A stretch of DNA of 17,605 nt from a virus (taxonomy: Duplodnaviria > Heunggongvirae > Uroviricota > Caudoviricetes): IMG/VR virus record IMGVR_UViG_2675903413_000004, positions 1 to 17,605 of that record; one strand, 5' to 3'. This document shows, piece by piece, positions 7,601-17,605 of the stretch (its first letter is position 1; each line of letters starts with the position of its first letter). The translations under genes and the position numbers were made by a program. A model generated the notes under the pieces. That model had not been told where the DNA came from. It worked only from the letters and a program-made list of their open reading frames with translations, and did not search any database.

Positions 7601-8304
7601 GCTTTCCCCTTAATATCCTGCGCCTTAACATCCCAGCCAAAACCTATGGCCTGAAGCTGACGCGCCAGCGCCTTGTCAAATTCATCATCATTCATGCCCA
7701 GAAACACACGAGCAGGAAGATCCACTGTCCAGCTGGTTTTCACGGCTTTATTACTGAGTTTTCGAATCAGCAGCCCCGCCTGGCTGTATGGCATCGTTTT
7801 GGTGATTTCGCCCTGTGTGGGCTTTTTCCATCTCTTACCGGTTTTCACCCGGTACCCCAGCGCCCGTAATTTTTTGGCCTGGGCAGGCGTCGCCATTTTC
7901 CCGGCCTCTGCCTTCCGTGGCTGATTACTGCGGCTGACCTTTACGCGCATTCCGTTTTGTTGCGCGTACCCCACCGTTCCGGCTGGTACCGGCGCTTCCC
8001 CGTTCCGGTATCCACCGCCCTGTAAATAGATCCGCACAGCCTGAATTTCTGGCATTTCACGGATATGCAGCAGCTTTGGCAGGTTGCGCAGCATCTTCCC
8101 TTTGCGTTTTGTCTTACGTCCCGGCCACTTCTGGCCATCCGGGGATTCCTGATTGCGCACATGCCGCTTTGCCGCAGCAATCACGCCATATTTGGCCAGA
8201 CGCCAGATCAGACGCTGCCGTTTTCTCGGCGGCAGCTCCATGCTGGCCAGTGCCTTGCGCAATTCGGCCAGCTGTTTTTTATTCAGCTCGCCACCGGCAA
8301 TCAT
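7597..8304 (-). CDS. Phage virion morphogenesis / tail completion protein (P2 gpS-like) with a long basic C-terminal extension
   Basis: 235 aa; N-terminal region (LAELRKALASM...ESPDGQKW...GYAQQNGMR) fits the PDG..W / YA..Q.G pattern of the virion-morphogenesis (gpS) family as recalled. ATGA overlaps at both ends (8301-8304 and 7597-7600). Confidence 0.5.
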   Translation of the reverse strand: MIAGGELNKKQLAELRKALASMELPPRKRQRLIWRLAKYGVIAAAKRHVRNQESPDGQKWPGRKTKRKGKMLRNLPKLLHIREMPEIQAVRIYLQGGGYRNGEAPVPAGTVGYAQQNGMRVKVSRSNQPRKAEAGKMATPAQAKKLRALGYRVKTGKRWKKPTQGEITKTMPYSQAGLLIRKLSNKAVKTSWTVDLPARVFLGMNDDEFDKALARQLQAIGFGWDVKAQDIKGKA

Positions 8305-8537
8305 TCGCTATCCCCCACCGGCGCACCGGCCTCATCCACGCTGTAAATACTGGCGGTCAGTGCCGTCCAGATTTCAGGCTCAACCAGTGACCAGCGCTCA
8401 CCCCGCCACGGAATAGCCCCGTTTTCGTCCTGCCTGATCACCAGTTCTTCTACCATCGGAACAGTCAGCACCACAGTGGCCACTTCCTCATCCTCCACCG
8501 ACACATCCCAGTCAGGTTCAGCTTCACTCAGCCCCAC
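8301..8537 (-). CDS. Small acidic hypothetical protein, first gene of the late operon (possibly 5'-truncated)
   Basis: 78 aa, very Asp/Glu-rich, GTG start at 8535-8537 directly abutting the junction with the oppositely oriented terminase fragment; stop overlaps the next gene's ATG. Confidence 0.35.
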   Translation of the reverse strand: MGLSEAEPDWDVSVEDEEVATVVLTVPMVEELVIRQDENGAIPWRGERWSLVEPEIWTALTASIYSVDEAGAPVGDSE

Positions 8538-8554
8538 TTCATCCAGTAGTTCCC

Positions 8555-8926
8555 TGTCTGGGAGTAGACGTTACCGGCATTGGCCAGGGTGTTTTTGACA
8601 ACATTCAGCATTTTGCCATGCGCGTGGCCGTCCCTATTCGTTACGACCTGAACACCAAAAATCAACTGGTGCTGAAAGCGGTGGACGTGGTGGAAAGCCA
8701 ACGTATTGAGTGGGATAAAAACCTGAAAGAGATCGCGGCCAGCTTTATGTCTGTGCGCCGAACCACCACACAAAGCGGCAACGCCATGACGTTTGTCGCT
8801 GACCGCAGCCAGGATACTGGCCACGCGGAGGCGTTCTGGGCGATTACCCACGGTCTGCATAACGAACCCCTTAACTATGAAAACAAACCTAAATCCCGCT
8901 GGGGTGTAAGGAAAGAGGCAGCATGA
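8555..8926 (+). pseudogene. 5'-truncated remnant of terminase large (ATPase) subunit gene (gpP-like), C-terminal ~100-120 codons only
   Basis: Frame is open from 8438 to a stop at 8924-8926 that overlaps the portal ATG, but the only ATG (8618) has no SD. Protein-like sequence (..CLGVDVTGIGQGVFDNIQHFA-MRVAV..) begins about 8555 with no start codon. In P2-family phages the gene immediately upstream of the portal is terminase P. Confidence 0.4.
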
Positions 8927-9984
8927 GTAAAAAGAAACGCTTTGTTAAGCGCGACCAGCGCGGCGACAAATCAAAAAAGATGAGCATTATCACATTCGGC
9001 AAACCTGAACCGGTTCTGACTACCGGCACAGATTACCGTGATATCTGGTACGACAATGCCGCCGATCACTTCACCCAGCCGATTGACCGGCTGGCACTCG
9101 CACAGCTGATTAATCTTAACGGTCAGCACGGCGGCATCATTCACGCCCGCAAAAACATGATTGTTTCAGACTACCTGGGGGGCGGGCTTATTCACGACCA
9201 GCTGGAAGCGGCAGCGTTTGACTATATAACCTTTGGGGATATTGCGATTGCCAAAATTCGTAACGGCTGGGGCGACGTGATCGCACTTGAACCCTTGCCC
9301 GGTCTGTATATTCGCCGCCGCAAAGTCAGAGATAACGCCCTGGATAAGCCCGGTGACTACGTGGTGTTACAGGAAGGAGAACCGCAGGTATGGCCAGAAG
9401 AAGATATTATCTTCATCAAAATGTATGACCCACAACAGCATATCTACGGACTGCCGGACTACATCGGCGGTGTGCATTCCGCGTTACTTAACAGTGAAGC
9501 GGTCATTTTCCGACGCCGCTATTACCACAACGGTGCGCACACAGGCGGTATTCTTTATACTCGCGATCCCAGCATGACGGACGAAATGGAGGAAGAAATT
9601 GAACAGCAGCTGCGTGACAGCAAAGGGATCGGTAACTTCTCCACCATCCTTGTAAACATTCCCGGTGGAGACGGCGACGCCATCAAATTCATTGAAATGG
9701 GGGATATTTCCGCGAAGGATGAATTTGCCAACATCAAAAACATCAGCGCCCAGGACATTCTGAACGCGCACCGTTTCCCTGCCGGCCTCGCCGGTATTGT
9801 CCCGCAGAACACTGCCGGACTGGGGGATGTTGAAAAGGCTGAACGCATTTACAAGAAAAGCGAAATTGCCCCCATCCAGCGCCGTTTCATGCTGGCCGTT
9901 AACAACGATCCTGAAATACCGGAAAGGCTACACCTTAACTTTGATTTAAGTTACACAGAATCAACGGATAAGGGTGCGGCATGA
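8923..9984 (+). CDS. Q: Portal protein (P2 gpQ-like)
   Basis: 353 aa starting MSKKKRF... with GAGG SD 5 nt upstream. Long stretches (DYRDIWYD, RLALAQLINLN, HGGI, ARKNMIV, AVIFRRRYYHNGAH, ISAKDEFANIKNISAQD-LNAHRFPAGLAGI-PQNT-GLGD) match the P2 portal as recalled; needs search confirmation. Confidence 0.7.
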   Translation: MSKKKRFVKRDQRGDKSKKMSIITFGKPEPVLTTGTDYRDIWYDNAADHFTQPIDRLALAQLINLNGQHGGIIHARKNMIVSDYLGGGLIHDQLEAAAFDYITFGDIAIAKIRNGWGDVIALEPLPGLYIRRRKVRDNALDKPGDYVVLQEGEPQVWPEEDIIFIKMYDPQQHIYGLPDYIGGVHSALLNSEAVIFRRRYYHNGAHTGGILYTRDPSMTDEMEEEIEQQLRDSKGIGNFSTILVNIPGGDGDAIKFIEMGDISAKDEFANIKNISAQDILNAHRFPAGLAGIVPQNTAGLGDVEKAERIYKKSEIAPIQRRFMLAVNNDPEIPERLHLNFDLSYTESTDKGAA

Positions 9985-10034
9985 GGCGAAAGAGGCTAAA
10001 ATCCAGGCATCATTTAACAGCTGGAGCATGGAAT

Positions 10035-10304
10035 ATGCGAGTTCTGAAAATCGAATGCCCGGAATGCGGCTCAAAGGCTGTTATTCGTAAAACAAACAGG
10101 AAGCACCGGCAGATTGCCGATATTTACTGTGCCTGTTCAGATGTTGAGTGTGGCCACACGTTTGTTATGAATCTGACGTTCTCCCACACTCTCAGCCCCA
10201 GCGCTAAAACGGGTGATGCGATGGTGCAAAAAATACTGAATGCACTTTCACCCGATCAGCGCCAGATGGCATTAGACCTACTGAAAGCGACTCCCGCCGC
10301 CTGA
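10035..10304 (+). CDS. ogr: Ogr/Delta-family zinc-finger late-gene transcriptional activator
   Basis: ORF track 9981..10304; the ATG at 10035 has GGAG 8 nt upstream and places the zinc finger at the N-terminus as in Ogr. Motif CPECG-x20-CACSDVECGHTF matches the Ogr/Delta C-x2-C...C-x4-C-x2-TF signature. The 9981 start (ATGA-coupled to portal stop) is not excluded. Confidence 0.75.
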   Translation: MRVLKIECPECGSKAVIRKTNRKHRQIADIYCACSDVECGHTFVMNLTFSHTLSPSAKTGDAMVQKILNALSPDQRQMALDLLKATPAA

Positions 10305-10484
10305 AATGCCCCCATTCTGGGGGCGTTGCCCTTCCTTTTTAACTATTTCGCGAACCTCTCCCGCAAGCTCTCCAATCCAGGCCAAAGCGATTGTTTTTTC
10401 TCTCTGGTTACTTTCGTAAACATGGGCAATTTTGGCCAATAACTCAATGCGTTCCAGCTGTGCCGACGCCTCCAAAAGATCCAT
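10278..10484 (-). CDS. Hypothetical small protein (68 aa) between replication gene and late activator
   Basis: ATG at 10482-10484 preceded by GGGGG 4 nt upstream; N-terminal 50 residues look helical and protein-like. The 3' end overlaps the ogr stop and the hairpin, so the true end is doubtful. Confidence 0.25.
   Translation of the reverse strand: MDLLEASAQLERIELLAKIAHVYESNQREKTIALAWIGELAGEVREIVKKEGQRPQNGGISGGGSRFQ
10308..10340 (+). terminator. Possible (non-canonical) terminator after the late activator gene
   Basis: Perfect 6-bp GC stem GCCCCC (10308-10313), loop ATTCT, GGGGGC (10319-10324), but the T5 run (10336-10340) is 11 nt downstream rather than adjacent. Confidence 0.3.
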
Positions 10485-10603
10485 TTAGCCCCCACAAGCA
10501 ATAAATAACTGGATATACATACAGTACACCTTAAAGCACGAATTGTGAAATTTAATTTCCTGCCATCTACTGACAAATGAATGCCTTTCACATAATTACA
10601 CCG

Positions 10604-12625
10604 CTATAACCACCCCGGCCACAGTTCCTGCAATGGCTCGTTTTGAGTCTCTTTAAGCCGCCCGTTGCGGTAAATCAGAGCGCCCTGACCAAATCTCAAA
10701 CCACTACCCCGCAAGAGAATGGCTATTTCTTCATCAGAACCATCAAAACCCCGACTGCGTAATTCCAGTTTTAACCGTCTGCGGGTTCCCCCCTCCGTAC
10801 AGTTATTGACAGAACTCCAAGGGGCGGCGTTGCCGCCAGAAAAACCCGCCTCCGCTGGCGCTTCGGCCAACTTCGCAACCTTTTGCCACTTAACCAGACG
10901 GGTGCAAACTTCTGAATCAGGAACCAAAGGAGAATAAACCCCCTGTATGCGCTGCACGTCCTCTGCATACTCGTTGCCCTGTTCCGTAATTTCATAGGCC
11001 AGACGAACAACCAGATCACGGCGGGCAACCAGTGCACCGCCCTGCGCCTGGGTATATGCAGCCCAGTCCCCGACATCAGCAGCGGCCAGAACCGCATCCA
11101 TTCTGCGATCGGTCAGCACCTGATCCCGCAACCGACGCAGCTCACGCCAGACAGTTACCGGCGCACCACCAATCTGCTGAAACTGACGAATACGCCAGCG
11201 TGAAGCCCATGCAGAAACGGACTTAGCCATATCACGCAGGTTTTCGCCGGTTTCTTCGTCATGCTCACCATCCAGCGCAAAACCATCAATATTTTTTGAA
11301 ATGTATTTCGCGATGTAGCCCGTGGCCGAACCTTTGGCGGGATCGATAGCTTCAACATGAAAACGCGCCTTCAGCGCCTTTTCAGATTGCAGTTCTTCAG
11401 AATCGGTAATTCTGGCGTGATAGCAAAGAATATCGCGTACCGTGTCCACGTCATGCGGACGCATAAAAAGCAACATATGCCAGTGCGGTGTCCCGTCATG
11501 GTGAGGCTCAACAACCCGAAACCCAAATACATGAATACCCGCACGCGAGATCGCTGCGCGTGCTTTTGCCCATACGCCGCATAAATAGCGCTGGGTATCC
11601 TGCGGCGTACATCCATCCCATTGCGATACAAAGCCACCTTTGCTGTGCACTGCGTGGAAACGTGATGGCGCGGTGATGGTGTAAAACTCACCGGCCAGCC
11701 CTTCTTCATTGGCCATATCTTCAAACCCTCGCATTCTTACCATTAGTTCACATCGACGGATCGCCGGATTTGCAACGCTGCGGTGCACCATGCTGTCCAG
11801 TGCAATGCGCAGCCCCTCATCATTCAGCAGATCAAACTTTTTAAAGAACTCCAGATTCCGCTTTTTCTGGTCTATCCATTCGTCCAGTGTTTTGCGGGAT
11901 ACATAAGCGCTGGCCGCTTTTTGTACCTGTCCCACCGCGATGGCCATATGTTCGCGCTGCATATCACGCGCACGTTTAAGACGTAGGTACCACCATTCCG
12001 GCGCCATCATGCGCAGTATCCCGGATTCCGCCTTACGCATTTCCAGTTGACCTTCATTGGCCTCATGTTCAGCCCAGTACGGCGGCTGGTTATTCAGCAT
12101 CAGGCAACCCGCGCAAAGATGGCGGTATGATTCCAAGGTGCGGCGATGCAGCTCTCTGGCGTCGTCAGTGCCAGAGTCAAACTGTTCGGTGAAGTCATAA
12201 AGTGACTGGGAAATCCAACCAGATACCTGGCCAGCCAGTTTTTTAAGATCAGGACGGTCTAGTGACGGCAAGCGCTCCAGCGACTTACCAAAAGGAAGAT
12301 CAGCAGCGTCAGCGGCCAGCGAGTAACGCGCAGCCACTTTGCGCAGACGTGGCAATACACTCCCGCCGATAGTCTGGCGCAGGAATGTATTGGCACGGCG
12401 ACGCCCGTCACGACCAGCAAACAGCTTTTCGTAACGACGGCCAAAATACCCGGCTAACCAGTCGGGTATCTCATGAAGGTACTGTGAGCGCCATTCGTAA
12501 TCCTGCGGGTTAACCGCCCACAGGCGGCGCTCAGTGAGCGTGGCGTCTGTAGGTGTACCCGGTGCGAACGTTTCACGCCGCCAGGTATCGACGGCGTGAT
12601 GTTGGCCATTGGCGACAGGAGTCAT
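10604..12625 (-). CDS. Rolling-circle replication initiation protein (P2 gpA / 186 RepA family, HUH endonuclease)
   Basis: 673 aa; HUH-like motif GTPHWHMLLF and catalytic-tyrosine motif GYIAKYISKNIDG; position downstream of the cII-early operon as in P2/186. ATG at 12623-12625. Confidence 0.8.
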   Translation of the reverse strand: MTPVANGQHHAVDTWRRETFAPGTPTDATLTERRLWAVNPQDYEWRSQYLHEIPDWLAGYFGRRYEKLFAGRDGRRRANTFLRQTIGGSVLPRLRKVAARYSLAADAADLPFGKSLERLPSLDRPDLKKLAGQVSGWISQSLYDFTEQFDSGTDDARELHRRTLESYRHLCAGCLMLNNQPPYWAEHEANEGQLEMRKAESGILRMMAPEWWYLRLKRARDMQREHMAIAVGQVQKAASAYVSRKTLDEWIDQKKRNLEFFKKFDLLNDEGLRIALDSMVHRSVANPAIRRCELMVRMRGFEDMANEEGLAGEFYTITAPSRFHAVHSKGGFVSQWDGCTPQDTQRYLCGVWAKARAAISRAGIHVFGFRVVEPHHDGTPHWHMLLFMRPHDVDTVRDILCYHARITDSEELQSEKALKARFHVEAIDPAKGSATGYIAKYISKNIDGFALDGEHDEETGENLRDMAKSVSAWASRWRIRQFQQIGGAPVTVWRELRRLRDQVLTDRRMDAVLAAADVGDWAAYTQAQGGALVARRDLVVRLAYEITEQGNEYAEDVQRIQGVYSPLVPDSEVCTRLVKWQKVAKLAEAPAEAGFSGGNAAPWSSVNNCTEGGTRRRLKLELRSRGFDGSDEEIAILLRGSGLRFGQGALIYRNGRLKETQNEPLQELWPGWL

Positions 12626-13482
12626 GCGCAGGCCATCGCTATAGAACCAAGCGGCGACTTCAGAATTAACTCTGCGGCAACTTTCTGGCTTGCAGCTGCG
12701 GCACCAACACTACGTGGGGCATTAATGCGAACGGCTTCAAATCCGGCGTACAGGTAATGCACCATTTCCAGATCGGCATTAGAGGCCACAACCGGCACAC
12801 CTTTTCTGGCCAGACGGCGCAACTTACGCGCCAGCCTCCCCTGATCCATGTGCGAAAAACCGCGCTCATGGTAAGCGGTGAAATTGTCGCTTTCAGTCAG
12901 ATAAGGCGGATCACAGTAAACAACGTCATTCCCGTCCCGAACCAAATCGAGCGTTTCTGAATAGTGGGCAGTAATGAACGTTGCGCGTTTCGCTTTTTCA
13001 GCAAAGGCACGGATTTCATCAGCGGGAAAATAAGGCTTTTTGTACTTACCGAACGGGACGTTGAACTGGCCTCGGCGATTATACCGGCACAGGCCATTGA
13101 AGCAGTGGCGATTCAGGTACAGGAAACGCGCAGCATTTTCAACAGATTCAGAACCGGCCTTACCACCAGAAAGATTGAAAGCATCACGCACTGCGTAATA
13201 GAAAATGGCACGGCTTTCTTCATCACCTAACGAACCGGCAGTAAACAGGATCTCCAGCTCATTCAGCAGCGCATCAGTGTGATACGCCATCGCCTTATAA
13301 AGATTAACCAGATCAGGATTCACATCTGCGATCAGATACTCGTCATAATCCGTATTCATCATGACAGCGCAGGAACCTGCGAACGGTTCAACCAGGCGTT
13401 TACCTTCTGGAAGGTGCGGACGCAGCATAGGCATAATGCGGGCTTTGCTGCCCACCCATTTAAGCGGAGTTTTTATTGCCAT
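12622..13482 (-). CDS. dam: DNA adenine methyltransferase, Dam family (N6-adenine, probable GATC specificity)
   Basis: ORF track starts at TTG 13503; first ATG is 13480-13482 (MAIKTPLKWVGSKARIM...). Motif I VEPFAGSCAV, motif IV DPPY, and FLYLNRHCFNGLCRYNRRGQFNVPFGKYKKPYFP almost identical in pattern to E. coli Dam. Stop overlaps the repA ATG (ATGA). Confidence 0.85.
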   Translation of the reverse strand: MAIKTPLKWVGSKARIMPMLRPHLPEGKRLVEPFAGSCAVMMNTDYDEYLIADVNPDLVNLYKAMAYHTDALLNELEILFTAGSLGDEESRAIFYYAVRDAFNLSGGKAGSESVENAARFLYLNRHCFNGLCRYNRRGQFNVPFGKYKKPYFPADEIRAFAEKAKRATFITAHYSETLDLVRDGNDVVYCDPPYLTESDNFTAYHERGFSHMDQGRLARKLRRLARKGVPVVASNADLEMVHYLYAGFEAVRINAPRSVGAAAASQKVAAELILKSPLGSIAMACA

Positions 13483-13706
13483 GCCGCACCGCCTTTGCTG
13501 CAAATCGCCGCGGCTTCTTCGCGGATCAACTCAACGATTTCCGTTGCGCTTAAACCTTCATTGGCTGCATGGGTGGCCAGCTTATTCAGACGGGTGGAAC
13601 ACAAATCAGCAGCAGCGGCTTTACCTTCCTGCGTGGCTTTGGTGAGCATTGCCAGCAGGTCAGTGACTGATTTTGTTGCGGGTAAATCCTGACGTGTCAT
13701 ATGCAT
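13473..13706 (-). CDS. Hypothetical early protein (77 aa)
   Basis: ATG at 13704-13706 with AGGA 9 nt upstream; Ala-rich helical protein; stop lies inside the start region of dam. Confidence 0.45.
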   Translation of the reverse strand: MHMTRQDLPATKSVTDLLAMLTKATQEGKAAAADLCSTRLNKLATHAANEGLSATEIVELIREEAAAICSKGGAAWQ

Positions 13707-13773
13707 TTTGGTTTCCTTAAGGCAAAAGAATCCCCGGCCACTTGAAACATGGCCAAAAAATTCAGGCGGTTAA

Positions 13774-14175
13774 TTAGTGAAAAGTGGGGTGTACTGTGGC
13801 AGCTGAGTAGTTCGGTACCGGAATCAGGTGCAGTTCATAGGTTGTCCGCCACCACTCCTGGATCAGTGCATTTATCTCGCCAACTCCCAGCGCCCCGGCT
13901 GTATAGAAAATCGCACGAATCCCCGCCAGCGCTTCTATCTGGGCTTCTTTGCTTTCCGCTTCGCGATACACGCAGCACCAGAAAGCGGCATTGATCGCCA
14001 GCCAGTGACGCGGATTCGTCATGTGCTCGGTGTCATTGAAGAAGAACGGATGCAAAGCGATGCGGCCATTTTTACTGGTGCTTTTCTCTGTAAACACTAC
14101 AGCGTAGTTATGCGGGACACCCCACACAGCCAGTTCAGCCCCCAACGATTTACCCTCAACGGAAATAATGGTCAT
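13774..14175 (-). CDS. Hypothetical early protein (133 aa)
   Basis: ATG at 14173-14175 overlaps the upstream stop TAA (14175-14177) by one nucleotide (TAATG); coding-like composition; no recognised motif. Confidence 0.5.
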   Translation of the reverse strand: MTIISVEGKSLGAELAVWGVPHNYAVVFTEKSTSKNGRIALHPFFFNDTEHMTNPRHWLAINAAFWCCVYREAESKEAQIEALAGIRAIFYTAGALGVGEINALIQEWWRTTYELHLIPVPNYSAATVHPTFH

Positions 14176-14798
14176 TAGTGATTCCCCTGTTGCTGGAACT
14201 TATGGACGATATGAGGTGCAATCACCATCTGTACCCCACTACTGCTATAAATTGGATGTGCCTTTTTGATCGGGCGGTTCGCGGTGCGCTTTGAAAAATC
14301 GCTGTCACGTAAACTGCCGAAACCTTCAAACGTTAACCGCGCCCGTGAAATGCCCTGGCGCAGTTGAATCATGTCCCGATAGCCCAGGCGTTCATAAATC
14401 TCACGCCAGCAACATTTGCTTAAGTGGGCTTTAAATGCCCCGGAACCAGAAGTAACCGCAGCAGCATGAAGCACCACGCCGCGCCACTCCGGTGTTAAGT
14501 TGTCCCACCATTCAGCGGCCTCGCTGCTTTCGTTGAAGTATTTGCGGCGGATCTGTTTTAAATGCTCCAGCCCGCGCTTTTGCTGTTCCTGGCTAATCGC
14601 CATAACGCCCCCTATAGTCCCATCAGACGACGCCACCACGGGCGGCGCGGCTGCTGGCCATTGAATTTGTACATGTGGCCAGGGTTCCAGCGCTGACCGT
14701 TTGGCAGTTCTATCCAGCCCGTTGAACCACTCGGCAACTGCATGGCTGGTGATTCTTTTTTCAGGTAAGTGACAAACGCTTTCATGGTGTTCCCTCAC
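14175..14798 (-). CDS. Hypothetical early protein (207 aa from GTG, or 142 aa from internal ATG at 14603)
   Basis: GTG start at 14796-14798 overlaps the cII stop (GTGA); alternative ATG at 14601-14603 has GGGGG 4 nt upstream. Trp-rich segment EWWDNLTPEWRGVV; no recognised family. Confidence 0.5.
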   Translation of the reverse strand: MREHHESVCHLPEKRITSHAVAEWFNGLDRTAKRSALEPWPHVQIQWPAAAPPVVASSDGTIGGVMAISQEQQKRGLEHLKQIRRKYFNESSEAAEWWDNLTPEWRGVVLHAAAVTSGSGAFKAHLSKCCWREIYERLGYRDMIQLRQGISRARLTFEGFGSLRDSDFSKRTANRPIKKAHPIYSSSGVQMVIAPHIVHKFQQQGNH

Positions 14799-15298
14799 AT
14801 CAGGCCGGTGGCGTTGGTTGTGACCAGCTCCACCGCCGCAGCCAGAACAGGCGCAGAGTGAATACGGCTTTCAACGGTATAAGCCAGCACGGATAAGCTA
14901 CGGATTGCATCGCGGGCACGATCCAGAATTTGAGTACGGCGGGCGGCAGTCATATAGCCAGTTGATACGGCTTCCCCAGCAATCGCGCCCACACTGGCTG
15001 TGGCACTCAGTGCGCACAACTGCATGTTGCCTTCTGTGGCATTGTTCACCGGCACGGATGGAAGGCAGTTAATCTGACCTAACATCCCATCAAGCAAACG
15101 CGCATCTTCGGTGTAATCCGTGATAGCCAAAAGCTCATCACAGGTCAGGCGGTGCGGTTGTGCTGGGTTCAGTTTGTTGCGCAGGATCTGCGGCCTCATA
15201 CCAACGGCAGCGGCCACATCTTCAAGATTGTGCTCAATTGCAAATGCTCGGCAAGCCGCATCAAAGTGCGCATGTTTAGAGGTCTGGTAATCAAACAT
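14795..15298 (-). CDS. cII: CII-like lysogeny-establishment transcriptional activator (phage 186 CII family)
   Basis: 167 aa beginning MFDYQTSKHAHFDAACRAFA..., with ..RNKLNPAQPH.. matching 186 CII as recalled; GGGAGAGG SD upstream; second gene of the operon divergent from cI. Confidence 0.65.
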   Translation of the reverse strand: MFDYQTSKHAHFDAACRAFAIEHNLEDVAAAVGMRPQILRNKLNPAQPHRLTCDELLAITDYTEDARLLDGMLGQINCLPSVPVNNATEGNMQLCALSATASVGAIAGEAVSTGYMTAARRTQILDRARDAIRSLSVLAYTVESRIHSAPVLAAAVELVTTNATGLM

Positions 15299-15328
15299 TG
15301 TTTGCCTCTCCCGAATCCGTAGGATGGA

Positions 15329-15550
15329 TTACGCGTTAAGCGAAATGTCACATTCGCTTAAAGCCTGAATAGTGAGCGCGGCCATGTTGACTTCGACCAA
15401 GCCTTTCTTCTGCTTACCCTTCGGCTTAATAGGTAATTTCCCGTATTCGATCAGGTTCCTGGCGGTTTCTTTGTTGGTACCAGTACGGCGGCAATACTCG
15501 TCTAAAGGCAGGTATGGCTCAGGGATGATGATTGTAATGTTCGGACGCAT
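15329..15550 (-). CDS. apl: Apl/Cox-like excisionase and lytic-switch regulator (phage 186 Apl family)
   Basis: ORF track starts at TTG 15583; first ATG is 15548-15550 (MRPNITIIIPEPYLPLDEYCRRTG...), GGAG 8 nt upstream. Small basic protein, first gene of the operon divergent from cI, as in 186. Confidence 0.6.
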   Translation of the reverse strand: MRPNITIIIPEPYLPLDEYCRRTGTNKETARNLIEYGKLPIKPKGKQKKGLVEVNMAALTIQALSECDISLNA

Positions 15551-15685
15551 GAGGCAAACTCCACAAGTTAACCTGTACGGCAATACAGGGTTATATAAGG
15601 CAACATTCGAAATATGGAGCCAGATTAATTCGTGTTTCGAGAAGTGTCAATTTTAATTTCTCGAATCGAGACTTATGGATTCGCT
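15551..15685. promoter_or_regulatory. Lysis-lysogeny switch region between apl and cI with candidate convergently firing promoters and TCGA-type repeats
   Basis: Minus-strand perfect -35 TTGACA (15650-15645) with weak -10 candidates 15-17 bp downstream (about 15629-15622), directed at apl. Plus-strand TTAACC (15568-15573) and TATATA (15592-15597), directed at cI. The two would fire toward each other. Palindrome CTCGA-A-TCGAG at 15660-15670 plus TTCGAA (15606-15611) and TTTCGAG (15635-15641). Confidence 0.35.
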
Positions 15686-16267
15686 ATGAGCACATTTAAA
15701 ATCGACCTAAACGTAGATAGCACACCGATTCTTGACAGGGTGATCGAGGCTTACGGATTTACGCAGAAGTTACAGCTCGCGGAACATCTGGACATGGCAG
15801 CCAGTTCTCTTTCTTCACGCTACAAGCGTGGAGTTTTCCCGGCAGACATTGTCGTGAAATGTGTAGCCGAAACAGGCGCTAATCTGGAGTGGCTGGCGAC
15901 AGGACAGGGACGTAAATTTAATGATGATGAATTAGACATACTCAAAATACCGCGCAGCAAGATTGTTGATGGCCAACTCTATGACGCTGGCACACTTATG
16001 CTTGATAAAGTCATCTTCCTGCCTGGTAAGCCCTTACCGCAACAACCGATTTGTGTTCTGGATGGCCTTGTTCAGTACATTGTTGACCAGTCTTATTCTG
16101 AAGTTTATGACGATGATTGGTTGGTTGAAGTTGAAGGAAAAACAAGCGTCCGCACTCTTACACGGATTCCGGTACGAAAAGTCAGAGTTAGCGGTGTTGG
16201 TATGGCATTTGATTGCGGAATTGACGACATAAAAATCATAGGCCGCGTTGTTCTGACGATAAAATAA
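15686..16267 (+). CDS. cI: CI immunity repressor (phage 186 CI family)
   Basis: ORF track starts at GTG 15632; ATG at 15686 gives a 193-aa product. Segments DRVIEAYGFTQKLQLAEH...SSLS.RY and ETGANLEWLATGQG resemble 186 CI as recalled; stop is 1 nt before the int ATG. Confidence 0.7.
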   Translation: MSTFKIDLNVDSTPILDRVIEAYGFTQKLQLAEHLDMAASSLSSRYKRGVFPADIVVKCVAETGANLEWLATGQGRKFNDDELDILKIPRSKIVDGQLYDAGTLMLDKVIFLPGKPLPQQPICVLDGLVQYIVDQSYSEVYDDDWLVEVEGKTSVRTLTRIPVRKVRVSGVGMAFDCGIDDIKIIGRVVLTIK

Positions 16268-16268
16268 A

Positions 16269-17309
16269 ATGAGCGTTCGTAAACTTCCTACAGGCGAATG
16301 GATCGCCGACTTCTACACCGTCAACCGCAGTAATGGCAAGAACGGGAAGCGTATACGTAAAAAATTTGCCACGAAAGGGGAAGCCCTGGCATTCGAAAAC
16401 CATACGCTTCAGAAAGTAGACGCAGCTCCGTGGCTGGGTGAAGGGAAGGACAAGCGAACTTTAATAGATCTGATAACAATGTGGTATGAACGCCACGGCG
16501 TAGCTTTGAGCAATGGCGAAAAGCGTAAAAATGCTATGACCTGGGCGGCGGAATGCATGGGATTCCCGCTGGCCACAGAATTTAATGCCCAGTTGTTCAC
16601 AGCCTACCGCGCTAAAAGGCTGGATGGGCATTATGCCCGTACCAACAGAGTATCTAAGGTTTCCCCGAAAACTATGAACCTTGAACATGCTTACTTCCTG
16701 GCTATGTTCAACGAGCTGAAACGGATTGGTGAATGGTCAGCACCCAACCCACTAGAAAACGTCAGACAGTATCGTACTGATGAAACCGAAATGGCTTTCC
16801 TCACTACCGAAGAAATTGATCGGCTTTTACTGGAATGCAAACGAAGTAAAGTTAAGTACCTAGAATTAGTTGTCAAAATCTGCCTTGCTACCGGCGCAAG
16901 GTGGAATGAGGCGGCAACGCTGAAAAGCTCCCAGATCGCCGGGGGTAAAGTCACGTTCGTCAAAACCAAAGGGAAGCGCAACAGAACAATTCCCCTTGAT
17001 GATGAACTTCTGTCCGAATTACCTGAAACAAAAGGCGCTCTGTTCCCCAAGCCCTGCTACAACGCTTTCCGCTCTGCTCTGGAACGTGCAGGCATTGAAC
17101 TCCCCTCCGGCCAGCTTACCCATGTACTGCGCCATACATTTGCCAGCCACTTTATGATGAACGGCGGAAACATTCTGGTTCTGCAAAAAATTCTCGGCCA
17201 CGCTGACATCACTATGACAATGCGTTATGCCCATTTCGCCCCAAGCCACCTTGAAGATGCCGTGCGACTTAACCCCTTAAAATGTCGCAAAAATGTCGCG
17301 ACAGCTTAG
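16269..17309 (+). CDS. int: Tyrosine-type site-specific integrase (P2/186 Int family)
   Basis: 346 aa; C-terminal catalytic signature ..ATGARWNEA.., HVLRHTFASHF, LGHADITMTMRYAHF (R...HxxR...Y); almost contiguous with cI, as in the 186 cI-int operon. Confidence 0.9.
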   Translation: MSVRKLPTGEWIADFYTVNRSNGKNGKRIRKKFATKGEALAFENHTLQKVDAAPWLGEGKDKRTLIDLITMWYERHGVALSNGEKRKNAMTWAAECMGFPLATEFNAQLFTAYRAKRLDGHYARTNRVSKVSPKTMNLEHAYFLAMFNELKRIGEWSAPNPLENVRQYRTDETEMAFLTTEEIDRLLLECKRSKVKYLELVVKICLATGARWNEAATLKSSQIAGGKVTFVKTKGKRNRTIPLDDELLSELPETKGALFPKPCYNAFRSALERAGIELPSGQLTHVLRHTFASHFMMNGGNILVLQKILGHADITMTMRYAHFAPSHLEDAVRLNPLKCRKNVATA

Positions 17310-17344
17310 AAATACTGCCGAATACTCACAGATATTAACTAACG

Positions 17345-17373
17345 TAACTTATTGATAACACTGTAAGTTATTG
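17345..17373. repeat. Direct repeats in the int-proximal arm (possible Int arm-type or IHF sites)
   Basis: TAACTTATTG (17345-17354) and TAAGTTATTG (17364-17373), 9/10 identical, in the AT-rich region between the int stop and the candidate core. Confidence 0.25.
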
Positions 17374-17427
17374 TTTTTCGTAGATAGTTGATGCTTTATA
17401 ATATAGCCTGTGCTATATCTGTATGTA

Positions 17428-17447
17428 ATGCAATCATCCCTCAAGGA
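17428..17447. repeat. Right copy of imperfect direct repeat (candidate attachment-site core)
   Basis: ATGCAATCATCCCTCAAGGA; see the left copy at 357-377. Lies 118 bp past the int stop. Confidence 0.35.
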
Positions 17448-17476
17448 TCGACGGGATTAGCAAGTCAGGAGGTCTT

Positions 17477-17605
17477 ATGAATGAGTTCAAGAGGTGTATG
17501 CGCGTGTTTAGTCATTCTCCCTTTAAAGTACGGTTAATGCTGCTCTCTATGTTGTGCGATATGGTCAACAACAAACCGCAGCAAGATAAACCTTCCGATA
17601 AATAG
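17477..17605 (+). CDS. Small ORF (42 aa) with strong ribosome-binding site; probably flanking host gene
   Basis: AGGAGG (17467-17472) 4 nt upstream of the ATG at 17477; MNEFKRCMRVFSHSPFKVRLMLLSMLCDMVNNKPQQDKPSDK; stop TAG is the last codon of the window. Confidence 0.35.
   Translation: MNEFKRCMRVFSHSPFKVRLMLLSMLCDMVNNKPQQDKPSDK

Follow-up and report, generated by a model that had tools for sequence, protein, structure and literature searches.

The window analysed here comprises positions 1 to 17,605 of IMG/VR virus record IMGVR_UViG_2675903413_000004 (Caudoviricetes), and at its end lies the early-control region of a P2/186-family E. coli prophage. We focus on a gap of 135 bp (15551-15685), a candidate lysis-lysogeny switch region, which is situated exactly between two divergent starts: that of a 73-aa gene on the minus strand (CAT at 15548-15550) and that of the repressor gene cI on the plus strand (ATG at 15686). 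Open reading frames and family matches place cI followed by int on the plus strand, and the 73-aa Cox-like gene followed by cII on the minus strand:

14795-15298, minus strand: cII, CP76-type (PF06892)
15329-15550, minus strand: first lytic gene, encoding a 73-aa Cox-like excisionase/repressor (PHROG 575, E = 1.5e-27)
15686-16267, plus strand: cI, encoding a 186-family immunity repressor of 193 aa (PF07022, Phage_CI_repr, and PF16452, Phage_CI_C)
16269-17309, plus strand: int, encoding a tyrosine integrase

CI is 45% identical to the CI of phage 186, which is also its best structure match (PDB 2fjr, E = 1.4e-39), and by sequence it carries the wheel-forming C-terminal domain (PF16452; PDB 2fkd, E = 7e-14). 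The first lytic gene had been named apl in the initial annotation, a name that agrees with its position relative to 186 but not with its family, since the product falls into PHROG 575 ('Cox-like excisionase and repressor') and shows no similarity to Apl by BLASTP; the 73-aa protein has no Pfam, NCBIfam or PDB match. As judged from these comparisons, apl would fit this gene by positional analogy and not by family. Three complete E. coli chromosomes contain the segment 15300-16300 with 100% identity, and a version of this segment was found in 29 of 5426 complete genomes; the lysogen E. coli 1919D3 is 100% identical.

Because blastn against deposited phages aligned the Cox-like gene only and never the intergenic gap, a nucleotide-level alignment with the pR/pL region of 186 was impossible, and we instead compared the two regions by the positions of their elements. 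For comparison, we gathered from genomes and viral contigs those loci that encode a relative of CI or of the Cox-like protein, added four annotated records, and extracted from each the gap and 45 nt of the lytic gene, such that 120 loci yielded 80 distinct sequences. Promoters were scored in bits by a position-weight matrix scan with shuffles of the 135-bp gap as the control, and on this scale the annotated 186 promoters pR and pL reach 10.8 and 7.0 bits. A strict consensus scan of 15200-15900 reported no promoter, because its rule of 4/6 in each hexamer excludes the -10 element TAATCT described below.

Predicted promoters in and beside the gap

The predicted promoter elements are as follows:

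15645-15650, minus strand: -35 of the lytic promoter (pR analogue), TTGACA (plus-strand TGTCAA), 36 nt from the cI ATG and pointing at the lytic gene
15622-15627, minus strand: -10 of the lytic promoter, TAATCT, after a 17-bp spacer; predicted start about 15615
15532-15537, plus strand: predicted -35 of the lysogenic promoter (pL analogue), TTGTAA, which falls within the Cox-like coding sequence
15555-15560, plus strand: predicted -10 of the lysogenic promoter, CAAACT, after a 17-bp spacer; predicted start about 15566

TTGACA and TAATCT with their 17-bp spacer score 12.0 bits, a value reached by 2.75% of gap shuffles, and constitute the sole site of at least 12 bits on either strand of the 17.6-kb window. 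The initial annotation had pointed to a minus-strand TTGACA near the start of cI, aimed at 'apl', and had regarded the -10 elements as weak. TTGACA is indeed present, its promoter is the top minus-strand hit at the same position in 69 of the 80 distinct relatives, and the -10 elements are weak as described: TAATCT matches the consensus at 3 of 6 positions (retaining T1, A2 and T6), and every plus-strand pair is weak, the best scoring 6.3 bits. In the same 69 relatives, the top minus-strand match always has a spacer of 17 and a TTGACA-like -35, and its -10, a TAnnnT hexamer, ends 69-83 nt from the lytic ATG. Among the other 11, eight score at least 6 bits at this position but have a variant -35 (TTGCAT or TTTACA, for instance), and three score 3-4 bits only, two of them without a recognisable -35. 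The lytic hexamers persist among relatives while the surrounding sequence changes.

On the plus strand, the best match in 15506-15700 is TTGTAA-17-CAAACT (6.3 bits), whose hexamers lie at the exact offsets of annotated 186 pL, with the -35 within the first lytic gene and the same 17-bp spacer. CAAACT starts 4 nt after the lytic-gene CAT, like the pL -10 CATGAT after the apl ATG, and the 186 counterpart of TTGTAA is TTGCGA. All 80 distinct relatives have TTGTAA unchanged, even though a Thr and an Ile codon contribute their third positions to it, where changes would be synonymous; of eleven further variable third positions within the first 15 codons, ten have a major allele of 35-90% and one has a major allele of 95%. 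CAAACT is kept in 78 of the 80, within a near-invariant GCAAACTCC (15554-15562) whose flanks vary, and it overlaps the ribosome-binding site of the Cox-like gene (GGAG, 15562 to 15559 on the minus strand); in 186, a mutation of the pL -10 also damaged the apl ribosome-binding site and lowered Apl translation (PMC6593788). A plus-strand promoter near the 'apl' start, as initially proposed, is thus supported by the position of 186 pL and by the invariant synonymous sites, but its -35 lies outside the interval to which it had been assigned (at 15532-15537), and the pair that does lie inside, TTAACC/TATATA, is not conserved.

With predicted starts at about 15566 on the plus strand and about 15615 on the minus strand, the promoters would face each other across about 49 bp. 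All plus-strand candidates that have any support initiate to the left of the lytic start. The arrangement is therefore predicted to be convergent, and the proposal of face-to-face promoters as in 186 is supported by the sequence and by the comparison of relatives as a strong prediction, not as a demonstration. P2-like phages generally are described as possessing facing promoters with starts 40-60 bp apart, immunity operators that cover the lytic promoter, and sites for Cox/Apl that are found either between the two starts or on the lysogenic promoter (PMC7498355, PMC3448106); the predicted separation of 49 bp is inside the quoted range.

The next plus-strand pair offers a different placement of the lysogenic promoter, which we consider unlikely. 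TTAACC (15568-15573), an 18-bp spacer and TATATA (15592-15597), probably the plus-strand candidate that was originally meant, lie inside the gap and would initiate near 15604, in which case the two facing promoters would overlap by about 11 bp and polymerase binding would be mutually exclusive. This pair is the second-best plus-strand match (3.6 bits), and an AT-rich, TATAAG-like element at 15592-15599 is fairly conserved. However, the score is below chance level, TTAACC sits in the left arm of a hairpin (described below) where relatives have 18 different sequences, and nearly all relatives are missing the final T of the TATATA-like element, which also falls on the middle box of a 10-bp-spaced array.

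Marginally less probable still is that the gap contains only the lytic promoter and its operators, cI being expressed solely from a CII-dependent promoter or by read-through, and that TTGTAA and CAAACT are maintained by coding, ribosome-binding and Cox-box constraints. The weakness of the lysogenic candidate and the overlap of CAAACT with the ribosome-binding region and with the box-like GGCAAAC speak for this possibility, but prophage maintenance needs CII-independent expression of cI, which in 186 is supplied by pL (record annotation), and neither the two invariant synonymous sites in TTGTAA, which coding constraint does not explain, nor the identity of the TTGTAA/CAAACT offsets to those of annotated 186 pL would be expected. 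The least credible arrangement is a back-to-back, lambda-like one with the cI promoter to the right of the lytic -35, such as TTCGTG (15629-15634)-17-TTTAAT (15652-15657): TTTAAT matches 5/6 of the -10 consensus (2.3 bits for the pair), but TTCGTG is poor as a -35, TTTAAT is lost even from relatives with identical or near-identical CI (which have TCACAA, GGCAAT or ACGATT there), and the 186 and P2 records annotate convergent promoters, a layout described as general in P2-like phages (PMC7498355, PMC3448106).

Candidate protein-binding sites

Three candidate CI sites, none assigned to a strand, are located around the lytic promoter:

15629-15643: predicted CI operator O1, TTCGTGTTTCGAGAA, which takes up the spacer between the lytic -35 and -10
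15658-15672: predicted CI operator O2, TTCTCGAATCGAGAC, 7 bp upstream of the lytic -35 and containing a palindrome already singled out in the initial annotation
15598-15612: possible third CI site O3, of half strength, containing TTCGAA (15606-15611) and lying around the predicted lytic start

The palindrome in O2, CTCGA-A-TCGAG (15660-15670), extends to TCTCGA-A-TCGAGA (15659-15671), and three of the four copies of TCGAGA in the whole window occur inside 15637-15671. A related pair of near-palindromes is present at the O1 and O2 positions in all 64 relatives scored, with a sequence that varies from group to group: TTCGYGWTTCGAGAA / TTCTCGAATCGAGAY in the window's group, TTAGATAATATCTAA and ATCGTATTAAGCGACA in two other groups, and TTCGACTTAATCGAGA in the deposited phage ESSI2_ev015. 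At the O1 position, the spacer holds a 15-bp near-palindrome in which 10-14 of 14 positions are self-complementary in 49 of the 64. At the O2 position, a 15-mer resembling O1 (10-15 of 15 matches in 63 relatives, 9 in the remaining one, and an exact reverse complement of O1 in locus L050) begins 5-8 nt upstream of the -35, mostly 6-7. Measured between centres, O1 and O2 are separated by 28-29 bp, or nearly three helical turns, both in the window and in each of the 64 relatives.

When relatives are paired such that their CI N-terminal domains are less than 75% identical, the promoter hexamers are 65-79% identical, as compared to 48-49% for O1 and 34-35% for O2. Because the hexamers are fixed while the 15-mers turn over between CI N-terminal types, the 15-mers around the lytic -35 are best read as repressor operators, and O1 and O2 as predicted binding sites of CI that are built around a fixed promoter. 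Operator-like half-site matches also recur 31-33 bp from O1 in relatives, at the position of O3. However, relatives that share the window's CI have TTCAAA in place of TTCGAA, and TTCAAA is also present there in one relative of a different operator type; because TTCGAA is not kept within the window's own CI group, we leave O3 as a possible, weak half-site. Hence, of the operators initially suggested, the palindrome corresponds to O2 and TTTCGAGAA to the right half of O1, but TTCGAA does not appear to be clearly specific to one immunity type.

In 186, the distal operators FL and FR lie about 300 bp to either side of pR, and counterparts were not found here. Peaks near -300 and +303 from O1 derive from the 3' end of the Cox-like gene and from the ELDILK codons of cI, and were rejected as distal operators since both are conserved coding sequence common to relatives with different operators. 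Similarly, a match at 15308-15321 has 3 mismatches, which is at chance level (15 matches found against 20 expected), and the gap between the Cox-like gene ('apl') and cII was dismissed as a CI site as it does not vary by operator type. A degenerate distal operator may nevertheless be present. The ELDILK linker codons contain TTAGACATACTCAAA (15932-15946), which resembles the TTAGA-type operator of heteroimmune relatives and lies about 300 bp from O1, matching the distance of FL from the lytic promoter in 186; TTAGA-type phages may use it as an FL-like site, or it may simply reflect conservation of the coding sequence.

Two other sequence features touch the operators. A direct repeat of 17 nt with 88% identity consists of ATCGAGACTTATGGATT (15665-15681), which covers the right half of O2 and the cI ribosome-binding region, and ATCGAGGCTTACGGATT (15743-15759), which covers the conserved VIEAYGF codons of cI; given that the second copy falls in conserved codons and that relatives have no recurrent operator-like match at that offset, the repeat was rejected as an operator and is probably a coincidence. 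In addition, an in-frame GTG 18 codons 5' of the cI ATG extends the open reading frame (15632-15685) in a mechanically compiled list, but this GTG is most likely unused because it sits inside O1 and relatives diverge fully over 15632-15685.

Sites of two other types complete the region:

15579-15606, plus strand: three direct repeats with 10-bp spacing, GGCAATAC (15579), GGTTATAT (15589) and GGCAACAT (15599)
17311-17339, minus strand: array of three boxes with 10-bp spacing, TTAATAT, TGAGTAT and GCAGTAT, just after the int stop
15272-15325, plus strand: predicted establishment promoter (pE analogue), with CII half-sites ATGTTTA-N13-CAAACAT (15272-15298) and a -10-like TAGGAT (15320-15325)

The 10-bp-spaced boxes lie between the two predicted start sites, and their consensus, CGGCAATAT-N-ATAT-N-CAATAT, is retained across relatives regardless of CI operator type. 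Arrays with a spacing of 10-11 bp also follow the int stop in several relatives, more clearly so in L052 (CCAATAT, CCAATAA, CCAATAT), L005 and L063. In 186, Apl binds direct repeats spaced by 10-11 bp between pR and pL and at att (PMC7498355). The boxes at 15579-15606 are probably operators of the Cox-like protein, and the array at 17311-17339 likely represents candidate att-arm sites for the same protein.

The establishment promoter appears, from the sequence of its elements, to be conserved with that of 186. The predicted CII site overlaps the start codon of cII, TAGGAT follows 21 nt further on, and both are retained among relatives; the annotated CII site of 186, ATGTTTG-N13-CAAACAT, has equal spacing (ATGTTTR in both) and is likewise followed 21 nt on by a -10-like hexamer, the latter according to our own reading of 186. 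A few nucleotides 3' of the predicted pE start, and within the last codons (LSECDISLN) of the Cox-like gene, there is an inverted repeat with 9-bp arms (TTAAGCGAA-N8-TTCGCTTAA, 15338-15363), which many relatives retain across operator types and which is degraded in some, such as L057.

A covarying hairpin near the predicted lysogenic start

Shortly downstream of the predicted lysogenic start, the gap contains an inverted repeat whose arms covary among relatives:

15572-15589, plus strand: hairpin with arms CCTGTA (15572-15577) and TACAGG (15584-15589) and loop CGGCAA (15578-15583)

At this fixed position, 75 of the 80 distinct sequences have a 6-nt loop closed by 4-8 consecutive Watson-Crick pairs, with 18 distinct inner arms. 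Across 54 distinct 26-mers, 93.2% of cells are paired, as compared to 64% in shuffles, and none of 500 shuffles reaches the observed value; all six pairs show changes on both sides, and controls in which the partner was slid along pair at 45% or less. The cells in pairs 1-6 that are not Watson-Crick comprise eight G-T and two A-C, both A-C coming from two sequences without the hairpin. Because G-T dominates and A-C occurs only in sequences lacking the hairpin, folding on the plus, cI-ward strand is favoured. The arms do not track CI type, as evident from the window and the TTAGA-type L006, whose arms are identical. The hairpin folds at -7.3 kcal/mol and begins 2-6 nt after the predicted lysogenic start, and its conserved loop overlaps the first of the 10-bp-spaced boxes. 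The 186 leader, in contrast, folds no better than shuffled sequence (z about -0.3 to -0.7). Rfam 15 gave no match at an E of 1 or less in 15200-15800, and we found no description of such a hairpin in the papers searched.

Two conventional roles for the hairpin were rejected. As an intrinsic terminator it would require the T-run that follows in some relatives only, the window having GTTATATAA in its place, and a palindromic site for a dimeric protein is at odds with at least 18 arm sequences around a constant, non-palindromic centre and with arms that ignore CI type. We therefore raise, tentatively and as somewhat short of an even prospect, the possibility that the hairpin functions as an RNA element in this clade of P2-family switches, where it would form at the very start of the maintenance (cI-int) transcript. 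Short stem-loops at the 5' terminus are known to stabilise bacterial mRNAs, for example in the ompA leader. The hairpin resembles these in being short and placed a few nucleotides from the predicted 5' end of the lysogenic transcript, and differs from them in that its loop is conserved and is also the first DNA box. Our preferred reading is accordingly that a 5'-terminal stem-loop would stabilise the maintenance transcript of a weak, interference-prone promoter, with the loop doubling as the first DNA box of the Cox-like protein. It seems less likely that the lytic transcript, while being made, forms the complementary hairpin and that this causes polymerase to pause over the lysogenic promoter and thereby boosts interference by occlusion.

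If a stabilising or otherwise functional hairpin is indeed formed, it would add an RNA layer to a switch that has so far been explained by DNA-protein interactions and polymerase traffic, and, if it matters for cI expression, it would supply quantitative models of the switch with a new and easily tested parameter.

A probable switch of the 186/P2 class

Taken as a whole, the locus is very probably the lysis-lysogeny switch of a 186-type (P2-family) prophage with its own immunity specificity and convergent promoters. The motifs, their positions and their conservation or turnover among relatives are observations; promoter activity, start sites, the assignment of proteins to sites and transcriptional interference are inferred, the circuit by analogy with 186. 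A strong lytic promoter, starting near 15615, would drive leftward transcription of the Cox-like gene, cII and the other early genes, and a weak lysogenic promoter, starting near 15566 and with its -35 buried in the Cox-like gene, would fire rightward into cI-int. As in 186, lytic transcription would suppress the lysogenic promoter by transcriptional interference, and CI bound to O1 and O2 would shut off the lytic promoter and thus relieve interference on its own. The Cox-like protein, bound to the boxes between the starts and to the att array, would repress lysogenic transcription and direct excision, while CII would activate the upstream establishment promoter (15272-15325), likewise convergent with the lytic promoter, from which transcription would read through to cI.

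The resemblance to 186 (GenBank U32222) includes the gene order, with int-cI opposed to the first lytic gene and cII, and the CI family. In both phages the lytic promoter adjoins cI and has an operator in its spacer (the central operator of 186 occupies the pR spacer), and direct-repeat sites occur between the starts and beside int. The gap is of similar size, 129 bp in 186 and 135 bp here. Other dimensions differ: the lytic -35 is 15 nt from the cI ATG in 186 and 36 nt here, and the starts are separated by 62 bp in 186 and by a predicted 49 bp or so here. The operator sequences are unrelated to those of 186, and the phage is therefore presumably heteroimmune.

In P2, the convergent promoters Pe and Pc are annotated about 36 bp apart, and the first lytic gene is likewise a small Cox-type gene whose product doubles as the excisionase (PMC3448106). 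P2 differs in its repressor C, which is of another family and has short direct-repeat operators, in the absence of cII, and in the location of Pc, which lies wholly upstream of cox. The closest deposited phages are Escherichia phage ESSI2_ev015 (Quadragintavirus) and Salmonella phage S.Kent 1-2-1, with CI proteins 70-75% identical to that of the window and Cox-like gene DNA 71-76% identical. Their promoters, boxes and hairpin are laid out alike, but their operators differ (TTCGAYTTAATCGAGA and ATCGTATTAAGCGACA) and their intergenic DNA cannot be aligned by blastn. We found no experimental work on the switches of these two phages.

Several observations weigh against assigning the locus to this class in all its parts. 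The 6.3 bits of the lysogenic promoter are reached by 80% of shuffles, such that its prediction draws on positional homology and conservation, and the conservation of CAAACT has other possible causes in the overlapping GGCAAAC box-like sequence and ribosome-binding region. The operators are physically linked to cI, which confounds their relationship with CI. BLASTP detects no similarity between the Cox-like protein and either Apl of 186 or Cox of P2, and the search for FL/FR-like distal operators with the window's own operator sequence gave none. Finally, O1 and O2 are spaced by 28-29 bp as compared to about 20 bp in 186, where three operators at the lytic promoter lie two helical turns apart (PMC3675496). 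Given the different operator spacing and the negative search for flanking operators, the CI-wheel mechanics of 186 are not simply transferable to this phage.

The switch is a presumably heteroimmune new member of the 186/P2 convergent-promoter class and ordinary in kind. Its design adds little conceptually, as convergent promoters, operators over the lytic promoter and a dual excisionase/repressor are textbook P2/186. The 80 distinct natural variants, however, amount to a ready-made mutagenesis of the 186-type design, in which the hexamers are fixed and the operators turn over, and the near-three-turn spacing raises the question of whether these CI proteins form a 14-mer wheel of the 186 type. 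A specialist might find only two features worth an experiment, namely the hairpin and the unusual operator spacing.

Elsewhere in the early region, a D12-class N6-adenine DNA methyltransferase is encoded at 12622-13503 on the minus strand (PF02086, E = 1e-65), and a DUF2732 protein is encoded after the methyltransferase gene, at 13473-13706.

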